A stretch of 64,000 bases of DNA from assembly GCA_963699165.1 (NCBI GenBank), contig OY969413.1, positions 788,562-852,561 on the forward strand. The letters are read 5' to 3'. Shown here in pieces: positions 16,103-41,144 of this stretch. The position numbers were made by a program, and so were the translations under genes. The stretch is from Candidatus Kaiserbacteria bacterium (GTDB taxonomy: Bacteria > Patescibacteriota > Minisyncoccia > Phycocordibacterales > Phycocordibacteraceae). A model generated the notes under the pieces. The model saw only the letters and a list, made by a program, of their open reading frames with translations, did no database searches and was not told the origin of the DNA. Each line of letters opens with the position of its first letter. Within the stretch, counting starts at the first letter, position 1.

Positions 16103-16141
16103 AAATGCCCACGGCTTCGCTTCGGCGGGGAAGCCGCGATG

Positions 16142-21390: not shown

Positions 21391-21860
21391 CCGAGACTAC
21401 CGAACCCTTCTCCATAGAGGAGAGGCAGGCGCATGACAAGCAGAAAGTGCTCGACGCGCTCAAGGAAATGCCAATAGTACAGATTGCGTGCAAGAAAGCG
21501 GGCATAAGCCGACCGACGTATTACCGCTGGCGGCAGGAGGACAAGATATTCAGACGGCAGGCCGTCGACGCGATGAACCACGGGGTCGAGTTCATCAACG
21601 ATATGAGCGAGTCGCAGATTATCTCTCTCATTAAAGACAAGAAACTGCAGGCCATGGCACTGTGGCTGAAGCACAACCATCCGAAGTACGGCGCCAAAGT
21701 CAAAGAATACACGCCCCTCAGCGCGGACGACGATCTGACCGAAGATGAGCAGAAAATTGTCATGGAGGCACTGTCGCTTATCGCGCAGGGAACACATAAT
21801 GTAAAACCATATGAACGAAACCGAACGCCTATCGACGCTGATAAATACGGCAAGAAATAA
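21387..21860 (+). CDS. phage terminase small subunit-like HTH protein
   Basis: HTH ACKKAGISRPTYYRWRQ. Its stop overlaps the large terminase start. Confidence 0.45.
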   Translation: MTETTEPFSIEERQAHDKQKVLDALKEMPIVQIACKKAGISRPTYYRWRQEDKIFRRQAVDAMNHGVEFINDMSESQIISLIKDKKLQAMALWLKHNHPKYGAKVKEYTPLSADDDLTEDEQKIVMEALSLIAQGTHNVKPYERNRTPIDADKYGKK

Positions 21861-22980: not shown

Positions 22981-22987
22981 GAGAGGT

Positions 22988-23116
22988 TTACGACTCCTGC
23001 CAAATTTCCAGAGCTTCTTCCAAGTCCACACCAATCTCATCAGCCACATCCTGCACCTCCTGCGCCTCATCAAGCGTGAGGTCGTTCTCTTTTGCTAGTT
23101 CAAAAAGCTCCTCATC
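22988..23116 (-). CDS. small acidic protein (about 43 aa), hypothetical
   Basis: MDEELFELAKENDLTLDEAQEVQDVADEIGVDLEEALEIWQES. It is paralogous to the small ORF at 26250-26399. Confidence 0.3.
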   Translation of the reverse strand, partial: DEELFELAKENDLTLDEAQEVQDVADEIGVDLEEALEIWQES

Positions 23117-23120
23117 CATA

Positions 23121-23342
23121 TCAATGTGAAAAAAGGAGTGCCCATCCGATAAGAAGTAAAAAACCGGCAAAGCCGGCAGCAGCAAGCACTACCACGCTGC
23201 TTATGGCAAACGAGAGCGGATCTTTACCAAGAACTACGCCAAGCACGAGCAAAAAACAAAACAAACCAATAAGAAGGATAAGCCATCCCATAACCAATAT
23301 AATAACTACGATTGATGTATAGAGCAACAAAAAACTCCCCAA
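23121..23342 (-). CDS. small integral membrane protein, hypothetical
   Basis: 73 aa with two TM helices. Confidence 0.35.
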   Translation of the reverse strand: MGSFLLLYTSIVVIILVMGWLILLIGLFCFLLVLGVVLGKDPLSFAISSVVVLAAAGFAGFLLLIGWALLFSH

Positions 23343-23676
23343 TGTGGGAAGTTCTTTGTGGGAGTAACAAACTACTTGAAGATAGGCAGGATTTCGTCGC
23401 CTGCTTCGCCCTCTGTTCGTTTTTCAGCCCTCAATTTTGCTCCAGTCTTGCCCGGCTGAACTCTTGGTAGACCCGTAAGCCAGTGGTCGCTTTTTACCGC
23501 TACCTTCGCCCCTCTGGGCGATCCACCGCACAATGGCGGATGACGGTCTTACTTCACGACCCCTGTTCCCGGCCGAGGCCGAAAAATACCAACTCTCGCT
23601 ACTCCGCGGACTATTTTATCACAAGTGCCCTCGTGAAGGGCGAACCTCCAACCTTGGCGATGTATAGTGTGTGTAG

Positions 23677-23747
23677 CAGGGTATGGTGAAGCGGTATCAT
23701 GCGTGGTTTGGAATCATGCGTCGTAGGTTCAACTCCTACTACCCTGA
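23677..23747 (+). tRNA. tRNA-Pro (anticodon TGG)
   Basis: Hand fold: acceptor CAGGGTA/TACCCTG (C1:G72, the Pro identity pair), D-arm GTGA...TCAT, anticodon stem CGTGG/TCATG with two G-U pairs, loop TTTGGAA, T-arm GTAGG-TTCAACT-CCTAC, discriminator A. Confidence 0.6.
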
Positions 23748-23819
23748 CAGATTATCTTGTGCCGAGCATTGGACGAAGTGAGAACCTCCGGATGGATATG
23801 CAGCCCAACAAATCTCTTG

Positions 23820-24116
23820 TTATGATGACCCCATGATTACCCAGCTCCTAATAAGCGGCGTAATAGGCCTAATTGGCTGGTTCGTTTTGATGTATTTGAG
23901 CACCAACCTGCTTGGGATGTTTGTAAGGGGTTTATTTACTAATCCCGAATTGGGGTACACGAAGCTCATAAAGAGTAAGTGGTATGCAAAAAGAGCCATG
24001 TGATATGACTCTGAATCAATGGCGGAAAGATATTGGGCCTTTAATCCCTCAAGATACTTCTGCTCCTCGCCACTCTCATATCGAAGCGAGAGGTATGAGG
24101 CAAGCAACGGTTCCAT
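23820..24116 (-). CDS. hypothetical protein (low GC)
   Basis: 98-aa ORF with AT-rich codon usage typical of the island. Confidence 0.3.
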   Translation of the reverse strand: MEPLLASYLSLRYESGEEQKYLEGLKAQYLSAIDSESYHMALFAYHLLFMSFVYPNSGLVNKPLTNIPSRLVLKYIKTNQPIRPITPLIRSWVIMGSS

Positions 24117-24119
24117 ATT

Positions 24120-24533
24120 TTATTCGCTCCACAGCTTTGCGATAGTGTCTTTGGTCTTTTGCTCGTAAATGTCAATCAGTTTTTTGGAAGATTCTACTAA
24201 GCTCCGCTCGGCCTCGATTTTTTCCACTATTTGCTCTTGGACGGCTAAAGGCGGGAGAGGGATTTCGATTTCATTCAAAACTCGTATCGGTAATTGGGGT
24301 TGCGCACTTCCAGACATAAAATTTGAAACCTGCACCTCAAACTCTAAAGAATTCAAAAACAACAACAAAAAGTTCGGAGAAATCTTATCTAAGTTACTCC
24401 TTAGAATAACCATACCGGAATTGATTCTTATATTTTCAAACGGAATATTTTTTAAATAGTATGCCGTGTTTCCTAATGTGCCCCGCGTTGTCAAAACTAC
24501 ATCTTCACGCTTTAGTTTACCCTTCCGTAGTCC
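24120..24533 (-). pseudogene. hsdS: type I restriction-modification specificity subunit (HsdS) C-terminal fragment, truncated by IS3 insertion
   Basis: HsdS half-TRD with conserved coiled-coil region (LPPLAVQEQIVEKIEAERSLVE). The N-terminal part is missing and the reading frame runs into the IS3 left end at 24534. Confidence 0.6.
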
Positions 24534-24595
24534 TGACCTGACCCCCAAATTTCAGACCATGTTCTAGACGGGATTAACCGCTAGAATGACGTCAT

Positions 24596-24853
24596 ATGAA
24601 GCAATACCGCATCGCTCCTGAGGTGAAGGAACAAATCATTAATCGAATCAAGAACGATGGTGTCACTGTCGCCCAAGCGGCCAAAGAGCATGGTATCCAC
24701 GAGACCACCATCTATGGCTGGCTTGGTGCGAAAGTGCAAGACGGTACCGCATCTGTTCTTGAGATTGCGAGACTTCGAAAAGAGAATGACGAACTCCTTC
24801 GTCTTGTTGGACTCATGACGCTCAAGCTGTCTGAAACCCAAAAAAAGAAGTGA
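24596..24853 (+). CDS. IS3-family transposase OrfA (HTH)
   Basis: 85 aa. HTH plus leucine-zipper typical of IS3 OrfA. It overlaps orfB by 4 nt. Confidence 0.8.
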   Translation: MKQYRIAPEVKEQIINRIKNDGVTVAQAAKEHGIHETTIYGWLGAKVQDGTASVLEIARLRKENDELLRLVGLMTLKLSETQKKK

Positions 24854-25662
24854 GCAAAGAATCTCCGATTGGTACGCGCACAACAGCGCGTACTCTTGGT
24901 ATAGCTCGTTCCACCTTCTGGTATCAAAAGAAGAAGCCTGACAAAGACTGGGCACTCAAATGCCGTATTGAAGAAGTCCTTCGAGAGTTTCCTTCGTATG
25001 GATACCGGAGAGTTGCCCTGTATCTCAAGGAGAACAAAAAGAAGGTTCAAAGAGTCATGCGACTCTTTGGTATCAAAGCATATCGAAGAAGAGGAAGACG
25101 GTGGAGGAAATCAAGGAAACAAGCCGTGGAGTATCCAAATCTCCTGATGCGGATTGTACCCGCCTATCCGCATCAAGCATGGGTCGCTGATTTCACTCAT
25201 GTGTATTTCAAAGGGAAAGACATTCGTGTGGCAACCACCATGGACGTATACACTCGAAGTGTCGTTGGGCTCGCCATTGGTACGCGAGGTGGAACCGTAC
25301 TTGTGACGCAGGCATTGTGCGCGGCACTTCTCAACCATCCTCGTCCCACCATCTTTCACAGCGACAACGGAGTGGAATACAATGCCGCATCCTTCCGAGA
25401 GATGCTCATCAATTTCGGCATCAGCATCTCTCGCTCAAAAAAGGGCTGTCCGTGGGAGAACGGGTACCAAGAATCGTTCTATGGAAAATTCAAAACTGAT
25501 CTGGGCGATCCCAATCGCTTCGATACGCTTGGTGAACTTGTTGCTGAAATCTATCAGACAATTCACCGGTACAACACCGTGCGTATACACTCAACACTCA
25601 AGATGGCACCGAGAGAGTTTGCGAAATCGCACATCACCCGTACACTATCTTCACTCGTCTAG
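24850..25662 (+). CDS. IS3-family transposase OrfB (rve DDE integrase core)
   Basis: DDE triad region HSDNGVEY...WENG, rve fold. 270 aa. Confidence 0.85.
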   Translation: MSKESPIGTRTTARTLGIARSTFWYQKKKPDKDWALKCRIEEVLREFPSYGYRRVALYLKENKKKVQRVMRLFGIKAYRRRGRRWRKSRKQAVEYPNLLMRIVPAYPHQAWVADFTHVYFKGKDIRVATTMDVYTRSVVGLAIGTRGGTVLVTQALCAALLNHPRPTIFHSDNGVEYNAASFREMLINFGISISRSKKGCPWENGYQESFYGKFKTDLGDPNRFDTLGELVAEIYQTIHRYNTVRIHSTLKMAPREFAKSHITRTLSSLV

Positions 25663-25718
25663 GAAGTGGTCTGAAGAATAGGGGTCGGTACAGAATCGCT
25701 ATAGAAACTCTGGGCACG

Positions 25719-26219
25719 TCACCTAACCGAGAGAGTGTCCTTGATTTTTTGAGCAAGCTCGCTTGAGTTGAAACTTCCGTGGTTTTCCAATCGCAAGAGA
25801 GGCAAACCTGCGTCCTGCAAAATGCGCTCCACTTCTCGATCCCTCTCTTGTCGATCGGGGCGCTCGTGGGTTTTATCGTCCAGCTCAATTGCTAGTTTGG
25901 GCGAGATGTATGCCTTATCGCACAACACGAAATCAACTGACTTACCGTTTATGTGCCGGAATGCGCCTCGCCAGTTTTGGCCAACAACCTTACTATCTAC
26001 CAGCGTGGGCAGGTGAACCTGAGCGAAAACGAGATACTCGTTCCCAACAGCGGCTACCAAAGCGTCATAGCACTCATGCTCTGCACGGGACAGGAAAAAG
26101 TCCTTCCGCTTGTATTGGTACTTCTTTTCCTCGACGTCCTCACTCGTGGGGATTCGTAGAACGAAAAGTACGATAGCGATAACGGCTACAACACCGGCAA
26201 AAATGAATAGTATTGTCAT
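25719..26219 (-). CDS. membrane-anchored DUF2726/NERD-like nuclease-related domain protein
   Basis: N-terminal TM, then VDFVLCDKAYISPKLAIELDDKTHE, which matches the DUF2726 signature. Confidence 0.45.
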   Translation of the reverse strand: MTILFIFAGVVAVIAIVLFVLRIPTSEDVEEKKYQYKRKDFFLSRAEHECYDALVAAVGNEYLVFAQVHLPTLVDSKVVGQNWRGAFRHINGKSVDFVLCDKAYISPKLAIELDDKTHERPDRQERDREVERILQDAGLPLLRLENHGSFNSSELAQKIKDTLSVR

Positions 26220-26249
26220 AGCGATGGGTCAAATATAGCACCACGCCAC

Positions 26250-26399
26250 TCATTGCAGATCCGCGGCATCGTCCATATCAACATCACCGTCGGCAACCAT
26301 CTGTTGCACCTCCGGATCGAGAGCTTCAAAATCCGCAATCTGGTCGGGCTCGATAACTCCATCCTTTACTAGCTCAAGTATTTCTTCCGGGTCCATAGA
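26250..26399 (-). CDS. small acidic protein (49 aa), unannotated in the ORF track
   Basis: Manual translation MDPEEILELVKDGVIEPDQIADFEALDPEVQQMVADGDVDMDDAADLQ. Resembles the 22988-23116 product. Confidence 0.3.
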   Translation of the reverse strand, partial: SMDPEEILELVKDGVIEPDQIADFEALDPEVQQMVADGDVDMDDAADLQ

Positions 26400-26412
26400 T
26401 AGATAGTCGACA

Positions 26413-29400
26413 TCAGTAGAAATTCACCCCGCTCTTTTTGAGCTCACTCTCACGCGTATTGGTCAGTGAGAATTCGATTTGCGCGATTTCCTTCTCGTTC
26501 AGGTCGAAGAGTTTATAAACGATCTCGTCAATTTCATGTTCGATTTGTGTGACTGCGCCCATGTCGCCTGCAGCAGCTGCTTTTGTCGCCCGATCGGCAA
26601 GATCCGTAAGGCGGCCTTTGTCGGCGGGGTTCGCTGTAGGAATCGGCACTTTGGCCATTCGATCTCCTCGAAATTGCACTCGGCCCGCACTCCAAGGGTC
26701 ACCCCATGACGGAAATGTTGATCGATAGAACCAATCCATAACAGTGCTATTTAATATTGCCAATACGTACAGAGCGTCGGGCGTAAGAATTATAAAACCC
26801 GTTTTATTTATCGCGTTTCCTTCAGTATCTAGATATGCATGAAGTCGCTTCGAGGTTTCATTGAACACTATTTTCGGCTCATTGAATGCGGCGATATAAG
26901 ACTTCGATGGATTGTTATCCAGCTCAAGCCAGTGATGCTGGCCTTCGCCACCCCCGCGCCTTGACGTTTTACATTGCCCGCGAGCTTTTAGTAGATCTTC
27001 GAACCTGTTTAGATGATTCAGGACAGCAGGATATTTAGCCAGTTCTGTATTGAAGCCAAATGGAACTATAATTACATAAAACTGATGATATTCGTGAGTC
27101 CATCGTTTAATGTCGCGTCCACGAATCCATGGCTTTATCAACTCGGCCGATTTTGAATCCTCGCAGACTAATTTTTGCCGAGTGTCGCCATCTATCACGA
27201 ACGCTTCATTCAAACCCGTCTTAATACCGTAATAAAATCTGTCTTTAACATAATCCTCAAGCGGAGTACCGACAGATTTTAACTTTTCAATTAGCTCAAG
27301 CCCGGAACTACCTTCCAACGACCAGCCCTCCTCTTTCAGTTGTGACGGCGAGTAAATACTTTTCTGTTTGGTGATAACCTGCCGGAGCCACGCAATATCA
27401 GATTCATTTTTTACCACCAACGCAGTAATTTCGTCCGCTTCTTGTGCCTTTGATTTCTCTACAACCACGATCATTGGATCTGTCGATGCCTCAAAGACCG
27501 GAAGTTCGCAAAAATCAATTAGGTCGTGGATTCGATACGAGGAAAGCAGCTGTCGCAAGTTGCGGCCATACCCGGCCCGCTGAAATTTATTTGAACTGAT
27601 GAAGGAAAGGACGCCGCCTGTACGCAAAAGATTCAAACCGCGTTCATAAAAGAGACAGTAAATGTCACCACGGGCCGCAAAGGTCTTGTAACTTTTTCTC
27701 CACTCCGCCTGTTTAACGGTTCGAGCAAATTTTTCAATAGAGATATAAGGCGGATTGGCAATAACGATATCGAAACCGCCTTTTCGCTCTACTGCGGGGA
27801 AGAAATATCTGGTATCGAAAAATCCGACCGGCTTGTTTGTAAATATATTCTCGTAGCTGCCCCAAAGATTATTTATCCTAAGTCGTTCTTCGTGCTCATC
27901 CTCATTTTTTTCTGCCAGTAACTTTCTATGTTTTTCGTCTTTAACGACACTAAACGAGCGCAAAATACTCTCCAACTCTTTTTTTGTTCTGTCAGTTATC
28001 AACTGCTGCAATTTCCTGCCAACCTCTAATTTATGCAACTGGTCTACTGGGGCAAAATATTCATCGATGAGTTCGCCCAGTTCTACTGCAAACGTGTCTC
28101 CAAATAGCGGTCCTTCGTGGACCGGTGGTTTTGTGAGTGTGTCGGCACAAACGAATTTAAAGTCGAGGTTGGGTAACGGGTCGATGCCTCTATTGGGAGC
28201 ACTGTCGTCAACGCGTTGATCGACAACAAGCGTGAGAAAGCAACGCAGTCGCGATATGTCGGTCGCTACTGGCTGAATGTCGACTCCGTGAATGCATTCT
28301 CGAATCACACCTAACTTTCGGACATAGGGAAGGTTGTGTTCTTGCAGCTGTCTGCGCACCTCTACTGGCAGTTTACTCAGGTAAATGGAGCAGTCAGGAT
28401 CAAGGATTCCAAGCATGCGCACCAAGTGTTGAAGCACTCCGATGGGAAATGCGCCAGAGCCGCATGCTGGATCTAAAACCGCTGTTCCGTGTATTGCTTC
28501 CACGATCGTCCTCCTTTCATTTTCAGGAATCGGGTACTGTAAATCGTCTTCAACGTCGTATGTCGAGAGAGCACGTATCTTTTCCTCGGAAAAGCCAGTT
28601 TTAGTCACCAAATGACTAACAATCGCTTCCTCTACCATGAAATCAACAATTTCGCGTGGCGTATAAAAACTTCCGGTTGCACTTCGTGCACTGTCACCAG
28701 TTTCGGGATTTACCTCGGCAAGAAGATTTTCAAATATTCTTCCCAGCATTTCAGGGTCGATGGAGAGCTCTGTATCTATCGAGGTATTCTCATCGATTGT
28801 GAAGTTATACTCCTCGAAAATCCCGAATAATCCCGCAAACCATTCATCGGGAACTACAACAGATCCACGTCGGTCGCTCATGCCCGTAGTACGGTTAAAT
28901 TTGTGATTGTCTTCTGCGTGGTCCTGAAACAGACCTCCATTTAGAAATGGCACCATCTCGAATAGGTCGGAATGCCTAAAAAAGGATGGCCTAGAGTTGT
29001 GCGGCTTATTCAGTACTTCAAAAAAAAGTGGCACACAAAGGGAGTGATAATAATCCCCGGTTCTCGTCACCGCATCGACTGAAAGTAAATCGGACGGAAT
29101 TAGCGGTATACCTTCATTGCTTTTCTTTTGCTTCAAAAACCAGCAAAAAACAAGACGACCAATAAGCCGTATTGCGAAGTTGGCATACACGTCATCGCTT
29201 TGCGCTCCCAGAGCAAGGGTTCTTTGAAATGATACTGCACGCCTTCCTTCGCCTCTTACACCCCCAACCAGCTTAGAGTATTGCTCCGCAATTCGCGTAT
29301 AAAATTCCTTGCTTACGACTTCAAGCGAGAAGCGACTCAAGAGGTCGTCGGTGTCTTTGACACGACCGTGTTTTACGAGTTGTTGTTCCGGGGTCTTCGT

Positions 29401-29805
29401 TTTCGCGCCGACACCGAGATAAAAAGAATAGCGACGAGCATTGGAATACTTTGCGACGATCTTGTTCTTTTCGTTGAGATCGAGCGAAATGGTGAGGTAC
29501 GAGAGGCGATAGTTCTCAGATTCGTTGTTTTTGAAAATTACAAGTGCCTTGTCGTAGCCGAAAGTGGCGAGGATTTTGAACGCATCGGTCGCAATGGAAA
29601 CACGCGGGTCTGTCTCCTTTGCATGGGTCATTTCGAGTACGTAGGTATTGAGCGAGGGGGCGTGGCCGAGCTCGCGCGCTTTCGTGATTATCTTACATCG
29701 CGATAGATCAGCGATGTCTTTTTCTTTCTCAACATAATCCTCAGGCAGAAAATCTTGAAGAAATGCCGAAAATGCATCGGGGTTGTATTTTTGGTCAAAC
29801 TTCAT
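26413..29805 (-). CDS. MmeI/PglX/Eco57I-superfamily gamma-class N6-adenine DNA methyltransferase with a C-terminal TaqI/Eco57I-type target-recognition domain
   Basis: 1130 aa. AdoMet motif I VLDPACGSGAFP and catalytic motif IV IANPPYIS. Helical-domain motifs RLVFCWF and PFLNGGLFQD parallel MmeI RLLFCLFAED / PYINGKLFE. C-terminal YGIKTGLNEAFVIDGDT is TaqI_C-like. Low GC. Confidence 0.85.
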   Translation of the reverse strand: MKFDQKYNPDAFSAFLQDFLPEDYVEKEKDIADLSRCKIITKARELGHAPSLNTYVLEMTHAKETDPRVSIATDAFKILATFGYDKALVIFKNNESENYRLSYLTISLDLNEKNKIVAKYSNARRYSFYLGVGAKTKTPEQQLVKHGRVKDTDDLLSRFSLEVVSKEFYTRIAEQYSKLVGGVRGEGRRAVSFQRTLALGAQSDDVYANFAIRLIGRLVFCWFLKQKKSNEGIPLIPSDLLSVDAVTRTGDYYHSLCVPLFFEVLNKPHNSRPSFFRHSDLFEMVPFLNGGLFQDHAEDNHKFNRTTGMSDRRGSVVVPDEWFAGLFGIFEEYNFTIDENTSIDTELSIDPEMLGRIFENLLAEVNPETGDSARSATGSFYTPREIVDFMVEEAIVSHLVTKTGFSEEKIRALSTYDVEDDLQYPIPENERRTIVEAIHGTAVLDPACGSGAFPIGVLQHLVRMLGILDPDCSIYLSKLPVEVRRQLQEHNLPYVRKLGVIRECIHGVDIQPVATDISRLRCFLTLVVDQRVDDSAPNRGIDPLPNLDFKFVCADTLTKPPVHEGPLFGDTFAVELGELIDEYFAPVDQLHKLEVGRKLQQLITDRTKKELESILRSFSVVKDEKHRKLLAEKNEDEHEERLRINNLWGSYENIFTNKPVGFFDTRYFFPAVERKGGFDIVIANPPYISIEKFARTVKQAEWRKSYKTFAARGDIYCLFYERGLNLLRTGGVLSFISSNKFQRAGYGRNLRQLLSSYRIHDLIDFCELPVFEASTDPMIVVVEKSKAQEADEITALVVKNESDIAWLRQVITKQKSIYSPSQLKEEGWSLEGSSGLELIEKLKSVGTPLEDYVKDRFYYGIKTGLNEAFVIDGDTRQKLVCEDSKSAELIKPWIRGRDIKRWTHEYHQFYVIIVPFGFNTELAKYPAVLNHLNRFEDLLKARGQCKTSRRGGGEGQHHWLELDNNPSKSYIAAFNEPKIVFNETSKRLHAYLDTEGNAINKTGFIILTPDALYVLAILNSTVMDWFYRSTFPSWGDPWSAGRVQFRGDRMAKVPIPTANPADKGRLTDLADRATKAAAAGDMGAVTQIEHEIDEIVYKLFDLNEKEIAQIEFSLTNTRESELKKSGVNFY

Positions 29806-32800
29806 GCGGCTATCAATTCTTCGGACAGCACTATTAACTTTCCTGCATCGTTCGCGCGATCAGCGGTTTCAAAAATGCTCTCAAGATACTTTTGGGGCAC
29901 GAGTTCCTTGAGCGCGATGAATGCCTTACCGAGATTATCTTTTTCCATTCGCAAGTCGCCAATTTCTTTGAGCACGCCGTACGGAAGGCCGTCGAGATCT
30001 TTGATGGTCTTGATGATATCATCGCATAAATCTTTCGCGGGCGAATGATTTTCGGATAGGAACTTGAGATTTTTAAGCGCATCCTGCTTGCGGCGGCCGG
30101 TAATCGGTGGTTTGGTATTGTCCTTAAATATGTGTTCTTTGGCGATTTTGTATATTGGCTCGAAGTTTACCGTCGTTTCTAACGCTTTCTCCCCTTCAGT
30201 GATGTCATTGAAGAGAGGGAGCGCGATTTCCGGTGCAACGATTTGCACGGTCTCCGGTGTTTTACCGAACGCAAAAACAAAGTTGCCGCTCCTTTTTGCG
30301 AGCGCAACAACACCCGGGATGGCAAACTTACGAGCAATACGAGCCCGGTGCGGAATGGAGGCAATCTGCTTCCTGATTTCGGGATCGTGCCGGAAACGCA
30401 TCCACTCGTCCCGATATTTCGCATCCCACGACAAACTCTCGCTCTTATTCTTTTCTTCCTGATACTGCTTGGCAAAGTAGTTTTTGAGGTCTTCGTCTTT
30501 GGTGAAGATTTTGGTGTCCTCACCTAGCAAAGAATGGATCAAGTCCATTTTCAGCGTCGAAATAGCCCGCGTGTGGGTTTCCACTTCCCCGGTTGTCGTT
30601 GGGAAGAAGTTGAAAATATATAACTCATCAAATACCTTTTTGTTGATACGGTTGATGCGACCGACGCGTTGAATTACACGCGTCGGGTTATATGGAATAT
30701 CGTAGTTTATAACCGCCCCAGCACGGTGAAGGTTAAACCCTTCGGAGATGGCGTCGGTGGCAATGATGATGTCATAGTCGTCGGATTGCTTCGCCTTTTC
30801 AAGGCCGGCATCAAAGTTCTTTTGGATGATCTCCTTGTTGCTTTTCGACGAGTCCTCCGAACTGTATTTATAGACACGCTTGATGCCCTCGGCAGCAAGC
30901 TTGTCGGAGACGTAGTTTGCCGTATCAGTAAACTCGGTGAAGACGATAATTTTGCGTTTCGGTTCGTTCTTGATGGACCGCGTGATTTTTTCTTTGAAAA
31001 AATCATACTTTGGGTCGGTTTCTACCTTGAGCCACTTTTCCTGTACCTTTTCCAGGAGCGTAATGTCCTTCTCAAGTGCGGCACGAAATTGCGGTTGCAT
31101 TTCAGAGACTGGGATTTCGATGAGCCCTTTATCTTTGAGTCGCCCGAACAGCTCCTCGATCTCTTCGGCAGTCTTTTCTTCCAGTTCTTCAGTTGTCGGA
31201 AGTGCGCCCTTTTTAAAAATCGGAACAACGCCTTTATTATCGTACCAGTCGAGCATCGTCTCCGACGAAGCGATCATGTTTTTAAGCGAAGCACGGAACG
31301 AGCCGATAGAGCTTTCAAACCGGCGCACGAGCAAACGTCGCATGAACTTGGCGACGTTTGCCTGTGCTTGCGTGATCCGTTGGATTTTCTCTTCAGCTGA
31401 GATGTCACTTTCTTCGTCTTCTTCAGCTTCTATAAGTTCTTTGATGAACTTTGATCCGGTTTTGATGTAGCTTGCAGGCTTGTAGCGCACACCCTCGAAA
31501 CTCTCCGATTTATCGGAGGACGATATTTGCTCAAGCGTCTCAATGTAGAGAGGAGTGAGTTCGCCGAGGTCGTACTCAAGGATTTCCGGGTCGCGTACTT
31601 CCGCGAACGCAACACCCTGTTTCTCAAGGTCTAGGCGATAGTCCTCGATTTCTTTGAGATCAAGGCGAGAGCGACGAATAACAAGTGGCTCTATCATTTT
31701 CCGCAGTTCTGCGGCGATGGCGTGAAGTTCTGTTTGAACCTCTGATATTCCTTCAAGCCCGTTTTGCTTGGATGATTTCCGTATCTCACGGCGTATGTTT
31801 TTGTAGCGCTTGAAGAGTTCATGGAATGAGATGCTCAGGTTTTCGACGGTCTTGATAGTCGACTGACCAGGCGTGCTGAAAAGCTTAATGAGCGCGTAAA
31901 TGTCTTTTGGGTCATTGTTGAATGGGGTTGCCGAGAGCGCCATGACGGAATTGCCCGCACAGAGTCGGTGGAGCACTTTATAGTTGTCAGTATCTTCATT
32001 GCGGTGCTTATGAGCTTCGTCGAGAACAATGAGTACGTTTTTGTCGTTGCCATGTCGCTCTAAGGCTTTTTCGATTTCTCCAGTGGTATACACGAAGCCG
32101 TTGAAGTTGAAGCCCGAACGATAGTCATCCCACTGCGCCTTTAGATGCGGGGGCGCAATGATAATTGTCTTTCGGTCGAGATTGTGCGCGATGGTAGAAG
32201 CAATGATACTTTTGCCAAGACCGACGACATCAGCGATGATGACTCCACCGAAACGCTTGATGCGGTCTATACCAAGATTTACAGCATCTTTTTGGTACTT
32301 AAGATCGATGAACTTGCCGTCGGTGATCTGCTGCGGCGTCTTCATGCCATCTATCTCCTCGACGGAAAAATACTCGTCGAGAACGCGGTAATACATCAAC
32401 TTCGGGTCAGGCAACTGATAGAGCCAAATACGTTTTTTGACTTCAGCGATGAACTCGTCCGAGATGTTGATGTCGGTGATGGTTATATTACTCGGGTCAT
32501 TCCACGCAGCCTCAAATTCTCCAAAATGCTGTTCGTAGTAGTGCTTTTCAGAAAGTACGAGATTGTGTTCCCTTTGTCCCTTGAGACCGGAGTAGGTGAG
32601 ATTACTTGAGCCCACAAAGACCATGCCCGGTTTTTCACCATTCTCAGAGTACTCTGGTTTATGGTGGAGGATATAAAACTTGGCGTGGTTTGCCTCGGCA
32701 GTCTTCCTTATTAGTAAGCTGCCGTCTTTTATTTTGCTCAAGAAAATCTCAAAGGCTCTTTGCGACTCTTCATTATCGAAGTAGTCAGTATCGTTGAAGA

Positions 32801-33098
32801 TTTTTGAAAAACTCTCGATATACTCATTGCGCGCACTTGAACGAGTAGAGATTTTTGTACCCACCGCATGGTCGTCAAGGTCAAGGCCGTCAAATGATGA
32901 GATTTTTTCGATAATTTTCTTATCGATATCCATTCCGACGAGGATACGAATTGTTTTATCTTTCAGCTCTTCGTGTAAATCGCGAAAACCAGAAAAATAG
33001 AAATAGCCGACGAGAGCATCAATCCGGTCACTTTTGGGCAAAATCTCCTTGAGTTTTGAGGAAAGTGTGTTCTCGCCAACGTTGGTAATTGAGGGCAT
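29802..33098 (-). CDS. phospholipase-D-family nuclease domain fused to an SNF2/Rad54-family (SF2) DNA translocase ATPase
   Basis: 1098 aa. N-terminal PLD HxK motif NHAKFYILHH...VGSSNLT. Walker A GLGKS, DEAH box LDEAHKHRN, motif III LSATPF, helicase-C IIATDAISEGFNL and motif VI QRVGRINR. It overlaps the methyltransferase gene by 4 bp (ATGA). Confidence 0.85.
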   Translation of the reverse strand: MPSITNVGENTLSSKLKEILPKSDRIDALVGYFYFSGFRDLHEELKDKTIRILVGMDIDKKIIEKISSFDGLDLDDHAVGTKISTRSSARNEYIESFSKIFNDTDYFDNEESQRAFEIFLSKIKDGSLLIRKTAEANHAKFYILHHKPEYSENGEKPGMVFVGSSNLTYSGLKGQREHNLVLSEKHYYEQHFGEFEAAWNDPSNITITDINISDEFIAEVKKRIWLYQLPDPKLMYYRVLDEYFSVEEIDGMKTPQQITDGKFIDLKYQKDAVNLGIDRIKRFGGVIIADVVGLGKSIIASTIAHNLDRKTIIIAPPHLKAQWDDYRSGFNFNGFVYTTGEIEKALERHGNDKNVLIVLDEAHKHRNEDTDNYKVLHRLCAGNSVMALSATPFNNDPKDIYALIKLFSTPGQSTIKTVENLSISFHELFKRYKNIRREIRKSSKQNGLEGISEVQTELHAIAAELRKMIEPLVIRRSRLDLKEIEDYRLDLEKQGVAFAEVRDPEILEYDLGELTPLYIETLEQISSSDKSESFEGVRYKPASYIKTGSKFIKELIEAEEDEESDISAEEKIQRITQAQANVAKFMRRLLVRRFESSIGSFRASLKNMIASSETMLDWYDNKGVVPIFKKGALPTTEELEEKTAEEIEELFGRLKDKGLIEIPVSEMQPQFRAALEKDITLLEKVQEKWLKVETDPKYDFFKEKITRSIKNEPKRKIIVFTEFTDTANYVSDKLAAEGIKRVYKYSSEDSSKSNKEIIQKNFDAGLEKAKQSDDYDIIIATDAISEGFNLHRAGAVINYDIPYNPTRVIQRVGRINRINKKVFDELYIFNFFPTTTGEVETHTRAISTLKMDLIHSLLGEDTKIFTKDEDLKNYFAKQYQEEKNKSESLSWDAKYRDEWMRFRHDPEIRKQIASIPHRARIARKFAIPGVVALAKRSGNFVFAFGKTPETVQIVAPEIALPLFNDITEGEKALETTVNFEPIYKIAKEHIFKDNTKPPITGRRKQDALKNLKFLSENHSPAKDLCDDIIKTIKDLDGLPYGVLKEIGDLRMEKDNLGKAFIALKELVPQKYLESIFETADRANDAGKLIVLSEELIAA

Positions 33099-33198
33099 AG
33101 ATAAAATCTAGCATTTTTGCAGACATTTTGGAGCATCTGGTTACCAACTCCGAGGCCTCTCGGACGCTCTGGACTCCTGGGGGGAGACGCGTCATCCC

Positions 33199-34539
33199 TT
33201 GTGTTGTATGCAAACCATAACCGTGCCGGTGGGGCTTCCGGCCAAGCCAATACAAGCCCCCGTACGGGTCAGGTACTGCCTGTACGCCCGCAAGAGTACC
33301 GAAAGCGAGGAACGCCAAGTCCTCTCCATAGACAGCCAGATCAAGGAGATGCTCCAGCTGGCAGAGCGGGAGGGGCTGGAGATCGTGGAGCTCAAACGCG
33401 AGAGCCACTCTGCGAAAGAGACCGGCCAGCGACCGATTTTCAACGAGATCGTCGAGGAGCTCAAGGCGGGTAAATTCAACGGCATCCTCACGTGGGCACC
33501 GGATCGTATCAGCAGAAATGCCGGTGACCTCGGCAAGATCGTAGATCTCATGGACGCAGGTGTGCTGCAAGAGATACACACGTACAGCCAGAGCTTCAGG
33601 AACAATCCGAACGAGAAGTTCCTTCTCATGATATTGGGGAGCCAGGCGAAACTTGAGAATGATAACCGAGGTGTGAATGTGCGGCGCGGACTAAGAACGC
33701 GCTGCGAAATGGGTTTGCGTCCCGGCGTTGCGCCGACCGGCTATATCAACGAGTACACGAAGGAGCAGAATGCCGCGAAGCGCTGCCACGCCGTCATCGA
33801 CCCCGTGCGCGGCCCCATCATCAAGAAGATGTTCGAGAAGGTAGCAAACGAGAAATGGAGCGGTCGCAAGCTCCATCACTGGCTCAAATTCGATATCAAC
33901 TTTAAGTCCAAGGGCAACAAGAACCTCTCCCTCGGCAACATCTACGTCATCCTCCAAAATCATTTCTACTACGGCACCTTCGAGTACCCGGAGAAGAGCG
34001 GCAACTGGTACCACGGCAAGCATGAGCCGCTTATCTCGAAGGAGCTTTTCGACGCCGTCCAGGTGCACCTGAAGCGCGATCAGATCGTGCGCTCGGAGAT
34101 AAAAGAATTCGCCTTCACGAAGCTCATGGTCTGCGGCTCCTGCGGCTCGGGCATCTGCGCCGATGAGAAGTTCAAGCGCCTCAAAGACGGCACCTCAGCC
34201 CGCTATGTCTACTATGGCTGTACCCGCCACAAGGACAAGAGCTGCAAGAACGGCTATGTACGCGAGGAGGCCTTAATCGAGCAGATGGTGAAGGTGATGG
34301 ACGACGTGGACTTCAACAAGATAGCTATGCGGGAGAAGTTCGAGGAGGAGATGGAGCGGCTCAAGAAGTTCCAGCGCATGTTCGCCAGCGGAGACTCTGC
34401 ACCAAAGAAAGACATTGATCTCTGCGACTATGCGAAGTATCTTCTTCGCAACGGCAGTCTCACAGAGAAGCGCGAGCTACTGCTCTGTATCAAGAGCAAG
34501 TTGGTGCTGAAGAAAGGGGTGTTAGGACTGGAGAAATAG
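33199..34539 (+). CDS. large serine recombinase (resolvase/invertase N-domain, recombinase domain, zinc ribbon)
   Basis: Catalytic region VRYCLYARKSTESEERQ...SIDSQ, recombinase domain and CGSCGS...C..C zinc ribbon. 446 aa. Confidence 0.85.
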   Translation: MCCMQTITVPVGLPAKPIQAPVRVRYCLYARKSTESEERQVLSIDSQIKEMLQLAEREGLEIVELKRESHSAKETGQRPIFNEIVEELKAGKFNGILTWAPDRISRNAGDLGKIVDLMDAGVLQEIHTYSQSFRNNPNEKFLLMILGSQAKLENDNRGVNVRRGLRTRCEMGLRPGVAPTGYINEYTKEQNAAKRCHAVIDPVRGPIIKKMFEKVANEKWSGRKLHHWLKFDINFKSKGNKNLSLGNIYVILQNHFYYGTFEYPEKSGNWYHGKHEPLISKELFDAVQVHLKRDQIVRSEIKEFAFTKLMVCGSCGSGICADEKFKRLKDGTSARYVYYGCTRHKDKSCKNGYVREEALIEQMVKVMDDVDFNKIAMREKFEEEMERLKKFQRMFASGDSAPKKDIDLCDYAKYLLRNGSLTEKRELLLCIKSKLVLKKGVLGLEK

Positions 34540-34712
34540 CTAACCGTGCTTGCCGTGCTTTTTCTTGGCGGCAACCCATTCGACTTTGTTCGGATGCTTC
34601 GTGGCATACGCACGCGACGTGATCCGACCAGTGTCGACTTGGTGCGGTTGGTATTTCGCCCAGTTGTGATGTCTCGGGTCTTTACCCATATAGAAATTTT
34701 ATCATGCAAGCT

Positions 34713-35150
34713 CTAAATGGGCTGCTTGATTTTTGCGTATTCTATTTTGCAACCGACGATTCCGAAGGCCTCGTGGCAATTCACTACTGGCGACATCCAA
34801 CCCGGAACTTTTGGTAAGGTGCCGAAGTCAAGTGCGGTTTCCTGAGTGCCAGAAAACACCACCAACTCCCGATCAACGACCGGCGATTGCTCTGCAAGTT
34901 TGAAGCCGTTCTTTCGCAAGAAATCAGCCACCACCTGTCCGACCTTCTTTGGAGAGTAAATCTCGACGTACCCCTTCGGTAGCAAAACCTTAGCAAGGGC
35001 GGCTTCTGCATCAACCGGCGTCTCATAAATCTCATCCAATATGTATTCGGTTGCGTAACCAGAGCCGACACTTGAGTCTACGATTTCAGCGGCGGCTCTC
35101 CATTTGCCGTCCTCCGAGCGCTGCTGTGGTTTTGAGTAGTAGAAAAGCAT
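34713..35150 (-). CDS. hypothetical protein, third gene of the ClpP-like cassette
   Basis: 145-aa ORF. A 3-nt gap to the upstream gene suggests an operon. Confidence 0.4.
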   Translation of the reverse strand: MLFYYSKPQQRSEDGKWRAAAEIVDSSVGSGYATEYILDEIYETPVDAEAALAKVLLPKGYVEIYSPKKVGQVVADFLRKNGFKLAEQSPVVDRELVVFSGTQETALDFGTLPKVPGWMSPVVNCHEAFGIVGCKIEYAKIKQPI

Positions 35151-35152
35151 AG

Positions 35153-36490
35153 TTAATGTTGTACCAACTTCGCAGTCATCAGTCTGACGACATTCCTCAC
35201 CGATTCAAACACCAGCCCGATGGTCGCCTCATCAGCGACGATGAATCCGCGATGTGCGTATTGGCACCTGGCTTTATATAGTTTATCAAACCAAGGAAGA
35301 AGTGAGGCATCGAGGGCGTGTATTGCACCCACGATGTATTTTACATTGTCGTTAATAACGGCTTCGGGTACGAATAGGTGCTCAAGACAGCAATAAAGCA
35401 GGAGCAGTTTCGCGCCGAGATCAGAGACTTGGGTTGCAGAACTCAAAATATCTAGCGATGGTGCCACGTTAGACATACTCTCCTTGCTCCAGGGATTCTC
35501 GAGGAGATCAAAGATTAGCTTGTTATCGACAATGAATCTTTTCATCCCGCCGAATGTTCGCGTGTCGAGCCACATCGGCGAGAGGCCGCGATACCCAAAG
35601 GAGCGGAAAAGACAGCCGTCTGGGAATTTAGCCCACGGCTCTTTCCGATCCTCATGCCATGCAAAAACTCCTATGGTGCGAGCCCCAAGAAACACGGGAG
35701 TAGTGGGCGCTTCAATTTTGACATCAAAGCCGAAATCTATTTGCCCGTGGTGAACAAAGCCCGCGATTCGAAGTAAGTTCAGGAATGCACGAAGCGAGGC
35801 GGAGGCATAAAGGTACGCGTATGTCTCTGTGCCGGTAACCGTAAATCCTATGGATGGACTTGAGAAGAATTGCCGAGCGCTCGGGAGTGTGAGCTGCCGT
35901 AGATGTGGCTGTAACTCCTTGAACTTCTGCTCCAATGCATCGTCCTCAAGGTAACAAGAAAAAGGTGCTTCGAGCCCAACAAACATGTCTTCAAAGAATT
36001 CTCTGGCACCGCCCATCTCGGTTCGGAACTCAGTTATGTGAGTTATGAGGGTGCGCTCTTTAATCGAACCATCAAGTAATTCGAAATGACGATTGAGTAC
36101 ATCTTCCGCTGGTGATTCGCGCTCGCGCCAATCGAAACGGAATGCGGGCTCCTTAAGGTAGAAGAGGCCTCCGCCCGTTCGTTGAATAAACTCTTGCTCT
36201 GTGTCCGTAGCGAAAACGAGCTTGTAGTGGAACAAGATGTCAAGAATATCTAGCGGAGAAAATCTCAAACCATTCTCATGAAAGACTCGGCATTCTTCCT
36301 TGATTTCATCGAGCATTGGTTTGCGTTGAAAATATTGTTCTTTCCTCCACTTATCTTGGAGCGGCATAGCACGAGCACGACCGACTTCGCTGTCGGCGAG
36401 CCGCTCTATGCGGGAATAGGCCTCCAGTCCGATCCTTTCCTTCAGCTCTTCCACTCGTGGCATACGGGTGATTATAGACCGGCTGCCCAT
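35153..36490 (-). CDS. hypothetical protein with a C-terminal HEPN-like Rx4H motif
   Basis: 445 aa. C-terminal KARCQYAHRG (R-x4-H). No other recognisable domain. Confidence 0.45.
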   Translation of the reverse strand: MGSRSIITRMPRVEELKERIGLEAYSRIERLADSEVGRARAMPLQDKWRKEQYFQRKPMLDEIKEECRVFHENGLRFSPLDILDILFHYKLVFATDTEQEFIQRTGGGLFYLKEPAFRFDWRERESPAEDVLNRHFELLDGSIKERTLITHITEFRTEMGGAREFFEDMFVGLEAPFSCYLEDDALEQKFKELQPHLRQLTLPSARQFFSSPSIGFTVTGTETYAYLYASASLRAFLNLLRIAGFVHHGQIDFGFDVKIEAPTTPVFLGARTIGVFAWHEDRKEPWAKFPDGCLFRSFGYRGLSPMWLDTRTFGGMKRFIVDNKLIFDLLENPWSKESMSNVAPSLDILSSATQVSDLGAKLLLLYCCLEHLFVPEAVINDNVKYIVGAIHALDASLLPWFDKLYKARCQYAHRGFIVADEATIGLVFESVRNVVRLMTAKLVQH

Positions 36491-36508
36491 AAAATGCGGT
36501 CCCGACGT

Positions 36509-37156
36509 TTAGCCAGGAAGAGTTGCGAGATACTGATCCGTAATGTAGAGAACGCCTGCGGTGGGGATTTTCGGAAGCTCAATTTTGTCGAGGAAGCCAT
36601 ACTTTTGCGCGTCCGCAGCATGATAAGTTGCCGACTTTAATGCCGCATTCCGGACAGCCGCAGCTGTCAGATTTTTAGAACCCCGTGAGGCTGTTTCTTT
36701 TATGATAATCTTTTGGGTCTTCTCGTCCGTCGCGGATAGTGCAGCGTTTTGTGTTGCTAGGTCAAAGACATTGAACTGCTCGGGCAATGCCGTTCTTGGC
36801 ATCGTTGTCTGGTGCACCATAAAACTACAGTCCGGTACGCCAACTCGGTTCTGGAAGCTCAGGAAAAACGGGACGCCGGCTGAGGCAACATTTCCCATGT
36901 TATAGACGGTGGTTTTCTGAGGAATGGATTTAATAAAATTGTAGAGGCTTATCGCCGAGAATGGGCTGCCACCGATCGTCGATAGATAGACGACATATTC
37001 AGAAATGTTCTGTCCTGTCTGGGCTTGGTTGAGGATGAACCCGATGAAAACATCTTCCATTTTCTTGCTGATCAAAACACTGCACCAGATGTGCTGGACC
37101 TTGGGAGGTTGTGCTGTTTGAACTGGAGGCATGAGAGTCATTGTACGCTCATGCAA
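36509..37156 (-). CDS. ClpP/S14-family serine peptidase-like protein
   Basis: ClpP-fold motifs YLSTIGGSPFSAISLYN and GNVASAGVPF (catalytic Ser region) ... MVHQ. Confidence 0.55.
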   Translation of the reverse strand: MHERTMTLMPPVQTAQPPKVQHIWCSVLISKKMEDVFIGFILNQAQTGQNISEYVVYLSTIGGSPFSAISLYNFIKSIPQKTTVYNMGNVASAGVPFFLSFQNRVGVPDCSFMVHQTTMPRTALPEQFNVFDLATQNAALSATDEKTQKIIIKETASRGSKNLTAAAVRNAALKSATYHAADAQKYGFLDKIELPKIPTAGVLYITDQYLATLPG

Positions 37157-37238
37157 AATAAACCGAAAGATTCATTCAGTTCGAGTCCCTCCCGCCCTCC
37201 AATAGGAGAAGGTCGGTAAACACTAGCGCCCTAGACTG

Positions 37239-37325
37239 CGGAAGGGGTGAGATTCGAACTCACGGTCCCCGTTAAGAGACGGCGGATTTCAAGTCCGCTG
37301 CGTTAGACCACTCTGCCACCCTTCC
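37239..37325 (-). tRNA. tRNA-Ser (anticodon TGA), type II with a long variable arm
   Basis: Hand fold: acceptor GGAAGGG/CCCTTCC, anticodon arm GCGGA-CTTGAAA-TCCGC, variable hairpin, T-arm GTGAG-TTCGAAT-CTCAC. Close to the E. coli Ser tRNA pattern. Confidence 0.8.
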
Positions 37326-41101: not shown

Positions 41102-41144
41102 AATGAGAAAACGCCATCGGCAGTTTTCTCATTTGGTGCCCCCG
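41091..41144. repeat. 22-bp perfect inverted repeat whose left arm is the tRNA-Arg 3' end
   Basis: cgggggcaccaaatgagaaaac-gccatcggca-gttttctcatttggtgcccccg. Confidence 0.7.

Follow-up and report, generated by a model that had tools for sequence, protein, structure and literature searches.

In a 64,000-nucleotide (nt) stretch of the genome of Candidatus Kaiserbacteria bacterium (GenBank assembly GCA_963699165.1, contig OY969413.1, positions 788,562 to 852,561; hereafter the window), the AT-rich stretch between a tRNA-Pro gene and a tRNA-Ser gene appears to be the cargo part of a larger phage-derived mobile element, which is probably a single integrative element of the large serine recombinase (LSR) type located at tRNA-Ser(TGA) and occupying about 17.36-37.24 kb. 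The most likely extent of the element is thus about 20 kb, and the interval from tRNA-Pro to tRNA-Ser that an initial annotation of this DNA had called an integrated defence island is its right-hand two-thirds. That interpretation is partly supported: the horizontal acquisition, the richness in defence genes and the anchoring at tRNA-Ser stand, and the boundary at tRNA-Pro and the classic mode of integration do not. The element is of a known kind, an integrative defence island, and its less common feature is that LSR genes of this type adjoin tRNA genes. Its features are as follows, in window coordinates (aa, amino acids); loci of relatives that were fetched for comparison are designated L followed by a number.

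17360-17511, no strand: non-coding region X, with counterparts in L024 and L040; likely left end of the element
17539-18186, plus strand: backbone gene for a 215-aa protein, with homologues in L040, L051, L052 and L055
18198-19585, minus strand: genes for a 273-aa protein (weak DUF4145 match) and a 187-aa protein, G+C 0.48
20050-21390, plus strand: backbone gene for a phage-type protein with ParB_N and an N6/N4 DNA methyltransferase, hereafter ParB-methylase (Pfam; phrog_498, 6e-80)
21387-21860, plus strand: backbone gene for a small terminase-like protein, TerS (phrog_4044, 4e-9; colinear homologues in the family)
21811-22980, plus strand: TerL-like ATPase, 389 aa, nuclease domain missing (GpA_ATPase; phrog_38, 3.5e-41)
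23677-23748, plus strand: tRNA-Pro(TGG) (ARAGORN and Rfam)
23820-24116, minus strand: open reading frame (ORF) of 98 aa, no match in Pfam, PADLOC, PHROGs or NCBIfam
24120-24548, minus strand: type I HsdS fragment, 142 aa, with one target-recognition domain (Methylase_S, 2.4e-11; PADLOC Specificity_I, 1.7e-19)
24534-25692, plus strand: IS3-family element, orfA of 85 aa and orfB of 270 aa (HTH_Tnp_1, rve; TG...CA inverted repeats)
25719-26219, minus strand: DUF2726 protein with an N-terminal membrane helix, of a nuclease-like fold family (PF10881, 4.7e-29; weak MTES_1575 and DUF559 matches)
26413-29805, minus strand: gamma-class N6-adenine methyltransferase of 1130 aa with a TaqI_C specificity domain, type IIG-like (Eco57I, 1e-35; PADLOC REase_MTase_IIG, 2e-107)
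29802-33098, minus strand: fusion of a PLD(HKD) nuclease and an SNF2 helicase, 1098 aa, hereafter PLD-SNF2 (PLDc_2, SNF2-rel_dom, Helicase_C)
33208-34539, plus strand: intact large serine recombinase, LSR1 (Resolvase, Recombinase and Zn_ribbon_recom; phrog_95 integrase, 2e-62; serine of the YARKS motif)
34713-35150, minus strand: 145-aa protein encoded beside the 445-aa gene as its partner (60% identity to the 143-aa protein next to the homologue in L012)
35153-36490, minus strand: 445-aa protein with a C-terminal HEPN-like Rx4H motif (229 homologues, 45-60% identity)
36509-37156, minus strand: ClpP-like serine protease, 215 aa (CLP_protease, 3e-13; GNVASAG and HQT motifs; catalytic Ser and His kept)
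37157-37237, no strand: spacer by tRNA-Ser with a diverged family block (37211-37226) and a 22-mer resembling a tRNA 3' end (37180-37201, plus strand); probable right attachment junction
37238-37325, minus strand: tRNA-Ser(TGA) (ARAGORN and Rfam); right boundary and probable integration landmark

With everything in the window that lies outside 17.4-37.3 kb taken as the flank reference, the interval 23749-37237 has a G+C content of 0.481 versus 0.545 in the flanks (2-kb windows within it reach z scores of -2 to -4), which bears out the claim that the region between the two tRNA genes is AT-richer than its surroundings. The shift is real but is not confined to that interval, as had been supposed: the tetranucleotide distance from the flanks is elevated (z scores of 2-4.6) without a break from about 17 kb to about 37 kb, and composition is atypical from about 17.4 kb, 6 kb to the left of tRNA-Pro, to about 37.2 kb, where the distance drops sharply to its baseline at tRNA-Ser. 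An island edge at tRNA-Pro is contradicted by this anomaly and by the conserved backbone, both of which run 6 kb further left. Within 17-37 kb the G+C content is patchy, between 0.42 and 0.55 from segment to segment; the HsdS segment is at 0.42, the ParB-methylase, TerS and TerL-like genes are host-like at 0.545, and the LSR gene is host-like at 0.553 though it lies inside the interval first annotated. A second compositional anomaly of the window is found at 44-49 kb.

The right boundary at tRNA-Ser is well supported, because the synteny of relatives restarts there. The window is matched at 100% identity by the NCBI metagenome-assembled genome (MAG) contig JBAPNL010000020.1 (Minisyncoccia) and by two Logan contigs, so that the same content in four assemblies or samples represents the same strain; in the nearest other genomes, PilM is 66-72% identical (69-72% over full-length matches). 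Relatives keep the order Mur ligase ... tRNA-Arg(gcg), 157-aa gene ... tRNA-Ser(tga), DUF5652, RuvX and PilM. The distance from tRNA-Arg(gcg) to tRNA-Ser is 2.5 kb in L001, 4 kb in L003 and 22.9 kb in the window, the interval in L001 and L003 contains no tRNA-Pro and none of the genes present at 14.9-37.2 kb of the window, and synteny with L001-L003 restarts exactly at tRNA-Ser. Comparison with relatives thus distinguishes L001-L003 (PilM 72%), which lack the island, from the closer sequences, which are identical to the window and carry it.

Both tRNA genes were recovered by ARAGORN and Rfam on the strands first reported, tRNA-Pro on the plus strand and tRNA-Ser on the minus strand, with their 3' ends facing inward. 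The classic signature of an island at a tRNA gene is a tyrosine integrase accompanied by a direct repeat of the tRNA 3' end. No tyrosine integrase (Phage_integrase domain) was found among the ORFs tested from 14.4 to 39.5 kb, where the sole integrase is the LSR; the 22-27 nt at the 3' ends of tRNA-Pro and tRNA-Ser each occur only once in the window with up to three mismatches allowed, so that no attachment-site-like direct repeat of either tRNA marks the island edges; and a general repeat scan turned up no boundary repeat. The "classic architecture" that the initial annotation had seen is accordingly not present. Of the two tRNA boundaries that it proposed, the one at tRNA-Ser is retained on the evidence of synteny and the one at tRNA-Pro, a gene that the relatives lack at this locus, is not. 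Because no tRNA-Pro is found in the relatives, because backbone genes lie on both sides of it, and because its orientation is wrong (it is co-directional with the backbone genes, whereas the attachment tRNAs of the family are convergent), tRNA-Pro is not the other boundary but most likely lies in the interior of a cargo slot.

The case for a single element begins with the genes directly to the left of tRNA-Pro (ParB-methylase, TerS and the TerL-like ATPase), which had been overlooked. IMG/VR was scanned with the LSR and with the ParB-methylase, and all window proteins were then compared with the fetched loci. In about 25 IMG/VR contigs, the genes for ParB-methylase, TerS and TerL are followed on the same strand by that for an LSR, with a gap that is mostly 0.6-0.8 kb but extends up to 8.5 kb. 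The ParB-methylase of the window is 60-77% identical to the proteins of L024, L028, L032, L036, L038, L040, L052, L054, L056 and L058 (and 64.7% to that of L053, a match truncated by the contig end), and its homologues are encoded upstream of TerS on the same strand as the LSR. Homologues of the 215-aa protein (31-52% identity), which has no Pfam or PHROG match, are encoded upstream of the ParB-methylase in L040, L051, L052 and L055. L024 (ENA k141_356741) carries an LSR (65% identity), PLD-SNF2 (89%), a methylase, a 158-aa gene, TerS and ParB-methylase (66%), followed by an S24 repressor, in an order and on strands that match those of the window. L054 has ParB-methylase, TerS, TerL, the methylase and PLD-SNF2 (both on the minus strand) and LSR, followed by a convergent tRNA-Gln, and in L040 the gap between backbone and LSR holds a KAP NTPase. 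At the left end of the element, non-coding region X is approximately 72-80% identical to L024 positions 10-142 and L040 positions 189-358, and has a 21-nt exact core in common with L038 positions 8916-8936; it contains operator-like repeats (GAGACAAATAAGACAC and inverted GTGTCTC), repeated GAGACA/AGACAC motifs and the block ATAAGGGTATTCTAG. Region X may be an operator or promoter, or the recombinase-binding end of this family of elements. Because the backbone is colinear with that of relatives and X is positioned at the left edge of the tetranucleotide anomaly, 17.36-34.54 kb is read as one element.

The TerL-like ATPase matches phrog_38 over profile positions 254-518 of 760. Nuclease motifs are present in the TerL proteins of L051 and L034 (506-522 aa) and missing from the window protein and its closest homologue, that of L040 (466 aa). 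A simple truncated pseudogene is only part of the truth, as the L040 protein also lacks the nuclease motifs and has the same alternative C-terminal tail as the window protein. No capsid or tail gene was found in the window element, and none is present in the 12-kb repeat unit of L038 or the 13.5-kb contig L040; because of these units, the element family is either satellite-like or commonly decayed. Two LSR elements lie in tandem or back to back in L038 (IMGVR_UViG_3300009694_001303), L037, L027/L029 and L047/L050, which indicates repeated insertion at or near one site. Interpretation of L038 as a circular genome was rejected, since its terminal 438 nt are just 93% identical, which is a better fit to tandem related elements. 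To the left of X, 14936-17304 encodes a 388-aa protein, an AAA_18 kinase-like protein and shikimate kinase. The composition of these genes is host-like, but L001 and L003 lack them in the corresponding interval; they may belong to the core genome or stem from an older insertion that has since ameliorated.

The recombinase itself is intact, as first annotated, with all three domains and the YARKS serine. The LSRs of 33 IMG/VR loci share 44-69% identity with LSR1, whose nearest NCBIfam matches are CcrB and XisF, below the curated cut-offs. In all 14 of the independent fetched loci that have a tRNA gene downstream of the LSR gene, the two are convergent, with a spacing of 117-146 nt where no genes intervene (L036, L044, L053, L060) and of 0.5-4.7 kb where genes do intervene. 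The LSRs of L028, L031 and L033 (62-64% identical to LSR1) adjoin tRNA-Ser(tga), as in the window; those of L026 and L027, which at 69% are slightly closer to LSR1, have no tRNA within the fetched sequence. In L001, the C-terminus of an LSR survives as a 35-codon remnant (VKFLLRNGSLTEKRELL...), oriented like the window LSR and separated by 123 nt from the tRNA-Ser(tga) 3' end. The block GACAAYTTWKTATCGG directly follows tRNA-Ser in the LSR-associated loci L001, L028, L031 and L033 and is missing in the LSR-free loci L002 and L003; the window version of this block (37211-37226) is diverged, and no crossover point was identified. Together these sequence comparisons suggest that the right junction of the element abuts tRNA-Ser. 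The same spacer contains the 22-mer TTCGAGTCCCTCCCGCCCTCCA (37180-37201, plus strand), which resembles the T-loop and acceptor 3' end of a tRNA, is 36 nt from the 3' end of tRNA-Ser on the opposite strand, and has no match among the tRNAs of the window, in Rfam or among the IMG/VR contigs. It may be what is left of an attachment site once used by an older element that targeted tRNAs, or else belong to the conserved spacer of the LSR family.

In mycobacterial prophages, an attB site that overlaps a tRNA gene is typical of tyrosine integrases, and the serine-integrase phage Bxb1 inserts within groEL1 (PMC8092301). Judged against these prophages, the association of LSRs with tRNA flanks is a less usual trait. 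The classic LSR prophages and islands (Bxb1, phiC31, SPbeta, and SCCmec with CcrAB) resemble the window element in having a three-domain LSR and ends without long direct repeats, but differ from it in that they insert within protein-coding genes, whereas in this family the LSR and tRNA genes converge, about 120-146 nt apart.

A remnant of a second, related recombinase gene lies to the right of the element:

44790-45770, minus strand: LSR remnant, 51% identical to LSR1, catalytic N-terminus lost

The segment 44581-49060 is a second, decayed element of the same type, in which this remnant is convergent with tRNA-Leu(gag) (plus strand) at a distance of about 125 nt. The remnant is cut by a second IS3 copy (45844-47002), which is followed by rve-type transposase genes at 47076-48125 (plus strand) and 48122-49060 (minus strand), and the decayed element coincides with the compositional anomaly at 44-49 kb.

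The proposed history of the main element is as follows. The backbone would consist, in order, of X, the 215-aa gene, ParB-methylase, TerS, the nuclease-less TerL-like ATPase, cargo slot 1, the LSR, cargo slot 2 and the junction, and insertion next to the tRNA-Ser 3' end would have been the work of the LSR; a serine recombinase would leave no long direct repeat. In slot 1, the PLD-SNF2 nuclease and translocase would cut unmodified DNA while the N6-adenine methylase shields that of the host. The same slot would later have gained tRNA-Pro, the type I remnant, the DUF2726 gene and the IS3 copy, and the IS3 copy would have deleted neighbouring DNA. Slot 2 would hold the ClpP-like protease and the pair comprising the HEPN-like gene (a putative RNase) and its partner. 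The actual sites of recombination would lie at X and at the spacer by tRNA-Ser, and the element may still be mobile.

Several observations weigh against a single element. No attachment sites can be defined, and local alignment of the two ends of the element yields no repeat that scores above shuffled controls. No island-free close strain was found in genome and metagenome collections or by exact-protein look-ups, and presence or absence of the element is judged solely from relatives at genus level or beyond. The single-element model does not account for the tRNA-Pro gene within it, and none of the fetched relatives has a homologue of the segment 22981-26412. Rather than being cargo, the cassette between the LSR and tRNA-Ser may have been inserted separately, since its 445-aa gene is mostly stand-alone elsewhere. 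Provirus limits in IMG/VR may have been trimmed by software at tRNA genes, which would inflate the number of contigs that end there, although such trimming cannot account for the orientation or the spacing of LSR and tRNA genes. The main weakness concerns IS3: as neither copy has a target duplication, the DNA on either side of 24.5-25.7 kb could be secondarily joined, and rearrangement between IS copies could have united DNA that was not contiguous. It is offset by L024 and L054, which have the same layout of backbone, cargo and LSR without any IS.

Missing target duplications at both IS3 copies are also expected if the region is an accretion hotspot, in which independent elements lie side by side and have been stitched together by IS3-mediated deletions; this is rather unlikely but has to be taken seriously. 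Its parts would be a stretch at 17.4-23 kb (prophage remnant or decayed LSR element) that has lost its recombinase, a type I island once located at the 3' end of tRNA-Pro (the 98-aa ORF and HsdS fragment), an LSR-borne PLD-SNF2/methylase pair at tRNA-Ser, and a ClpP/HEPN cassette acquired separately. The heterogeneous G+C content of the segments (0.42-0.55), the orphan tRNA-3'-like 22-mer at 37180-37201, the tandem or neighbouring family elements of L037, L038, L027/L029 and L047/L050, the occurrence in L046 of tRNAs between a TerL fragment and the LSR, and the tyrosine integrases and tRNAs that adjoin members of the 445-aa family elsewhere all fit such a patchwork. It does not explain why L024 and L054 independently flank PLD-SNF2/methylase with ParB-methylase plus TerS and with LSR, in the order and on the strands of the window; the co-directional placement of tRNA-Pro differs from the convergence seen in 14 of 14 cases; and a former island at tRNA-Pro has left neither a tyrosine integrase nor a repeat of tRNA-Pro. 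The same two absences, extended to repeats of either tRNA end, make improbable the model of the initial annotation, a single 13.6-kb island integrated in the classic manner from tRNA-Pro to tRNA-Ser: that both tRNA 3' ends face inward, that the lowest G+C content lies between them and that defence-type genes fill the interval are all in keeping with it, but the anomaly and the conserved backbone extend 6 kb to the left of tRNA-Pro and relatives have no tRNA-Pro at the locus. It is very improbable that the region was never mobile and is a variable, fast-evolving part of the chromosome passed on by vertical inheritance. The lack of an island-free close strain and the recurrence of the same content in four assemblies or samples would fit this view, but those assemblies are 100% identical and amount to one strain, PLD-SNF2 is 89% identical in unrelated neighbourhoods while core proteins do not exceed 78%, and the region contains an intact recombinase, two IS copies (one of them in the decayed element) and phage packaging genes. 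A single LSR element at tRNA-Ser is therefore preferred.

In the preferred single-element reading, cargo slot 1 is 22981-33198, and its most conspicuous contents are the methylase and PLD-SNF2 genes, which overlap by 4 nt and form the methyltransferase plus PLD-SNF2 pair previously annotated. The motifs LDPACGSG and NPPY of the methylase and HAK..GSSNLT, GLGKS and DEAH of PLD-SNF2 are intact. In PADLOC, PLD-SNF2 matches DrmD (5e-33), HmaA (5e-23) and C3a139 (2e-31), an unnamed "HKD+Snf2" profile that spans the protein almost end to end. More than 4400 homologues of PLD-SNF2 were found; those in MAGs of Moran-, Nomura-, Roizman- and Paceibacterota are 64-89% identical and occur in varied neighbourhoods, always followed by an overlapping Eco57I-type methylase gene and often with a small helix-turn-helix (HTH) gene or an LSR gene ahead. 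Core proteins are much less similar to those of relatives (62-78% for PilM, RuvX and Mur ligase; 72% at best for PilM), and because PLD-SNF2 (89%) is conserved so far above such housekeeping proteins, the comparison indicates horizontal transfer. The methylase is a mosaic when aligned with the proteins of L019, L022 and L024: residues 1-100 are 84-91% identical, as conserved as the adjacent PLD-SNF2, residues 100-600 are approximately 50% identical, and in the specificity half beyond the identity falls to 12-30%. The contrast suggests a docking segment that is conserved and joined to swapped specificity modules, and such mosaicism is the pattern expected of a specificity-swapping restriction-modification system. 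A search of the N-terminal 200 residues of the methylase revealed no nuclease domain, and the nuclease appears to be supplied by the adjacent PLD-SNF2 gene. The logic of the pair would thus be restriction-like, with an ATP-driven translocase joined to an HKD nuclease on one side and a methylase with its own specificity domain on the other.

Type-2 BR systems combine an HKD nuclease/Swi2-Snf2 helicase effector with a modifier, and their locus includes a DUF499 AAA+ ATPase and a stand-alone DUF3780 protein (PMC12839542). The window pair resembles the BREX-related type-2 BR/Hma systems in that an HKD(PLD)-nuclease-Swi2/Snf2 fusion is paired with an N6-adenine methylase (PMC12839542), and it has PADLOC or NCBIfam matches to DrmD, HmaA, DrmMI and PglX, with all NCBIfam scores far below the curated cut-offs; the DISARM-like similarity (DrmD/DrmMI) is partial, 139 bits against a cut-off of 610. 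It differs in that no DUF499 ATPase or DUF3780 match was found among the region proteins tested or in the modules of relatives, where the module consists of two genes with or without the small HTH gene. Unlike class 1 DISARM, the region has no separate DrmA or DrmB (DUF1998) gene among the proteins tested, and a weak match to the DrmA profile arises from the helicase core of PLD-SNF2 itself. Because DUF499, DUF3780, DrmA and DrmB are missing and scores fall below the NCBIfam cut-offs, the pair is not assigned to BR/Hma or DISARM. With type III (Mod/Res), ISP and IIG systems it shares a translocase-nuclease subunit and a methylase with its own specificity domain, and the type IIG likeness extends to the PADLOC match of the methylase (2e-107), the TaqI_C domain and the hypervariable specificity half found in specificity-swapping systems. 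It differs from type III, ISP and IIG in having a PLD/HKD nuclease rather than PD-(D/E)xK, in having an SNF2-family helicase, and in placing nuclease and methylase on two polypeptides.

Between the LSR and tRNA-Ser, the ClpP/445/145 cassette would occupy a second cargo slot next to the junction; at the same position relatives carry an SF1 helicase, DUF2779/TnsA-like genes, or MmeI and Shedu with a pair of 436-aa and 143-aa proteins. The ClpP-like/HEPN-like cassette is present as annotated, and the label HEPN-like is reasonable given the invariant Rx4H. The 445-aa family (229 matches) is seemingly specific to Patescibacteria; across 34 aligned homologues E370-H371 and R408xxxxH413 are invariant, and this Rx4H lies in a helical C-terminal region. 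The AlphaFold2 model of the protein is mostly helical with a pLDDT of 91, and its best match in the PDB is a HEPN protein, which is weak (E 0.92, TM 0.37); no significant match was found among PDB or viral structures, or in Pfam, PADLOC, PHROGs or NCBIfam. From the model and the invariant residues, the 445-aa protein may be a new HEPN-type effector and putative RNase. The alternative that the ClpP-like protein and the 445-aa protein are a prohead protease and a major capsid protein was rejected, as the latter is mostly helical and has no match to a viral or capsid fold or to PHROGs. Members of the family are mostly stand-alone, sometimes located by integrases (including tyrosine integrases), tRNAs or proteases. 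The 145-aa protein has no family match in Pfam, PADLOC, PHROGs or NCBIfam, and a partner of this kind accompanies a 445-aa homologue only in L012, where the LSR and the 436-aa and 143-aa proteins are each approximately 60% identical to the three of the window; at the sequence level, this likeness fits co-inheritance. A conserved three-gene ClpP/445/145 system was rejected, since homologues of the 445-aa gene tend to stand alone or next to other genes.

The left part of slot 1 contains the truncated HsdS, the IS3 element and the DUF2726 membrane protein, all of them present by Pfam and PADLOC as had been annotated. The ORF of HsdS enters the left inverted repeat of IS3, where its 5' end is cut off, and does not continue past the IS; a type I restriction-modification set (HsdR, HsdM and a two-domain HsdS) is not represented, and the one-domain fragment stands alone. 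The coding span of IS3 orfA/orfB is 24596-25662 (plus strand), and comparison with the second copy (45844-47002), which is 100% identical, each being 1159 bp long, fixes the ends of the element at 24534 and 25692. No target-site duplication of 3-5 bp is present at either copy (the flanks are TCC/GAA and TTG/ATA). The NCBI MAG contig ends inside the IS3. Because the HsdS ORF stops at the inverted repeat and nothing of it is found beyond the IS, the arrangement is interpreted as an adjacent deletion by IS3, which removed the rest of the type I system, or as a rearrangement. An RNA gene in 23340-23676 was considered and rejected, as Rfam gave no match there. Small, strongly acidic ORFs (approximately 30-50 aa, e.g. 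MDPEEILELVKDGVIEPDQIADFEALDPEVQQMVADGDVDMDDAADLQ) at 26250-26400 and 23016-23110, both on the minus strand, flank the cargo genes and may encode anti-restriction-like or regulatory peptides.

P4-like satellites, P2 prophages and phage-inducible chromosomal islands (PICIs) are integrase-bearing elements located by a tRNA gene, with a conserved backbone and variable slots for anti-phage cargo, and Rousset et al. in 2022 reportedly described phage satellites and prophages with defence-gene hotspots. The window element resembles P4-like satellites, PICIs and P2 prophages in being an integrase-bearing element by a tRNA gene with a small backbone that includes the packaging gene for TerS, in having fixed slots with variable cargo (relatives carry KAP NTPase, MmeI, Shedu, restriction-modification genes and SLFN/AlbA) and in the lack of capsid and tail genes from the 12-13.5 kb units of L038 and L040. 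It differs in its large serine recombinase, which takes the place of a tyrosine recombinase, and in its Patescibacterium (Minisyncoccia/Paceibacterota) host; moreover, the analysis identified neither a helper phage nor a replication module nor any gene for capsid remodelling. The window copy may also be a decayed prophage, since L051 and L034 retain a full TerL. A more ambitious reading, put forward tentatively and with considerable doubt, is an undescribed family of satellite-like elements of Patescibacteria, about 12-20 kb in length, with an LSR directed to tRNA 3' flanks (of clade-specific tRNAs), phage-derived packaging genes that hijack a helper phage (ParB-methylase, TerS and a TerL-like ATPase, the last frequently without its nuclease), and two fixed slots by which defence cargo is shuttled between these bacteria, including the widespread PLD-SNF2/methylase pair and a Patescibacteria-specific HEPN-like protein of new fold.

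The tiny genomes of Patescibacteria are commonly described as poor in defence systems, yet about a third of the 64-kb window is mobile, defence-laden DNA. As it stands, the region is an ordinary defence island whose boundaries were at first drawn too narrowly. The part that might merit follow-up is the family-level picture of tRNA-flank LSRs, a backbone of packaging genes and two slots in Patescibacteria: comparison suggests that a recurrent vehicle, an LSR element whose backbone of phage packaging genes is combined with two slots for cargo, moves restriction-like and other defence genes among these bacteria, and suggests tRNA flanks as landing sites for its large serine recombinases. If true, this would give a rule by which to delimit islands in genomes of this kind, together with a pool of serine integrases specific for tRNA flanks, and would make the two-gene PLD-SNF2/methylase module and the HEPN-like family of the 445-aa protein candidates for new defence genes.

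Two other observations concern tRNA genes elsewhere in the window. Between a conserved 181-aa gene and tRNA-Arg(gcg), 11795-14014 encodes fumarase and a low-GC (0.417) TPR protein; at that spot L001 has tRNA-Arg(ccg) and a 635-aa gene, making this another variable spot by a tRNA. In both tRNA-Arg(gcg) and tRNA-Arg(tct), a perfect hairpin starts within the 3' end (24 nt at 14274-14325 and 22 nt at 41091-41144, respectively), so that the acceptor end of each tRNA contributes to a terminator-like stem.

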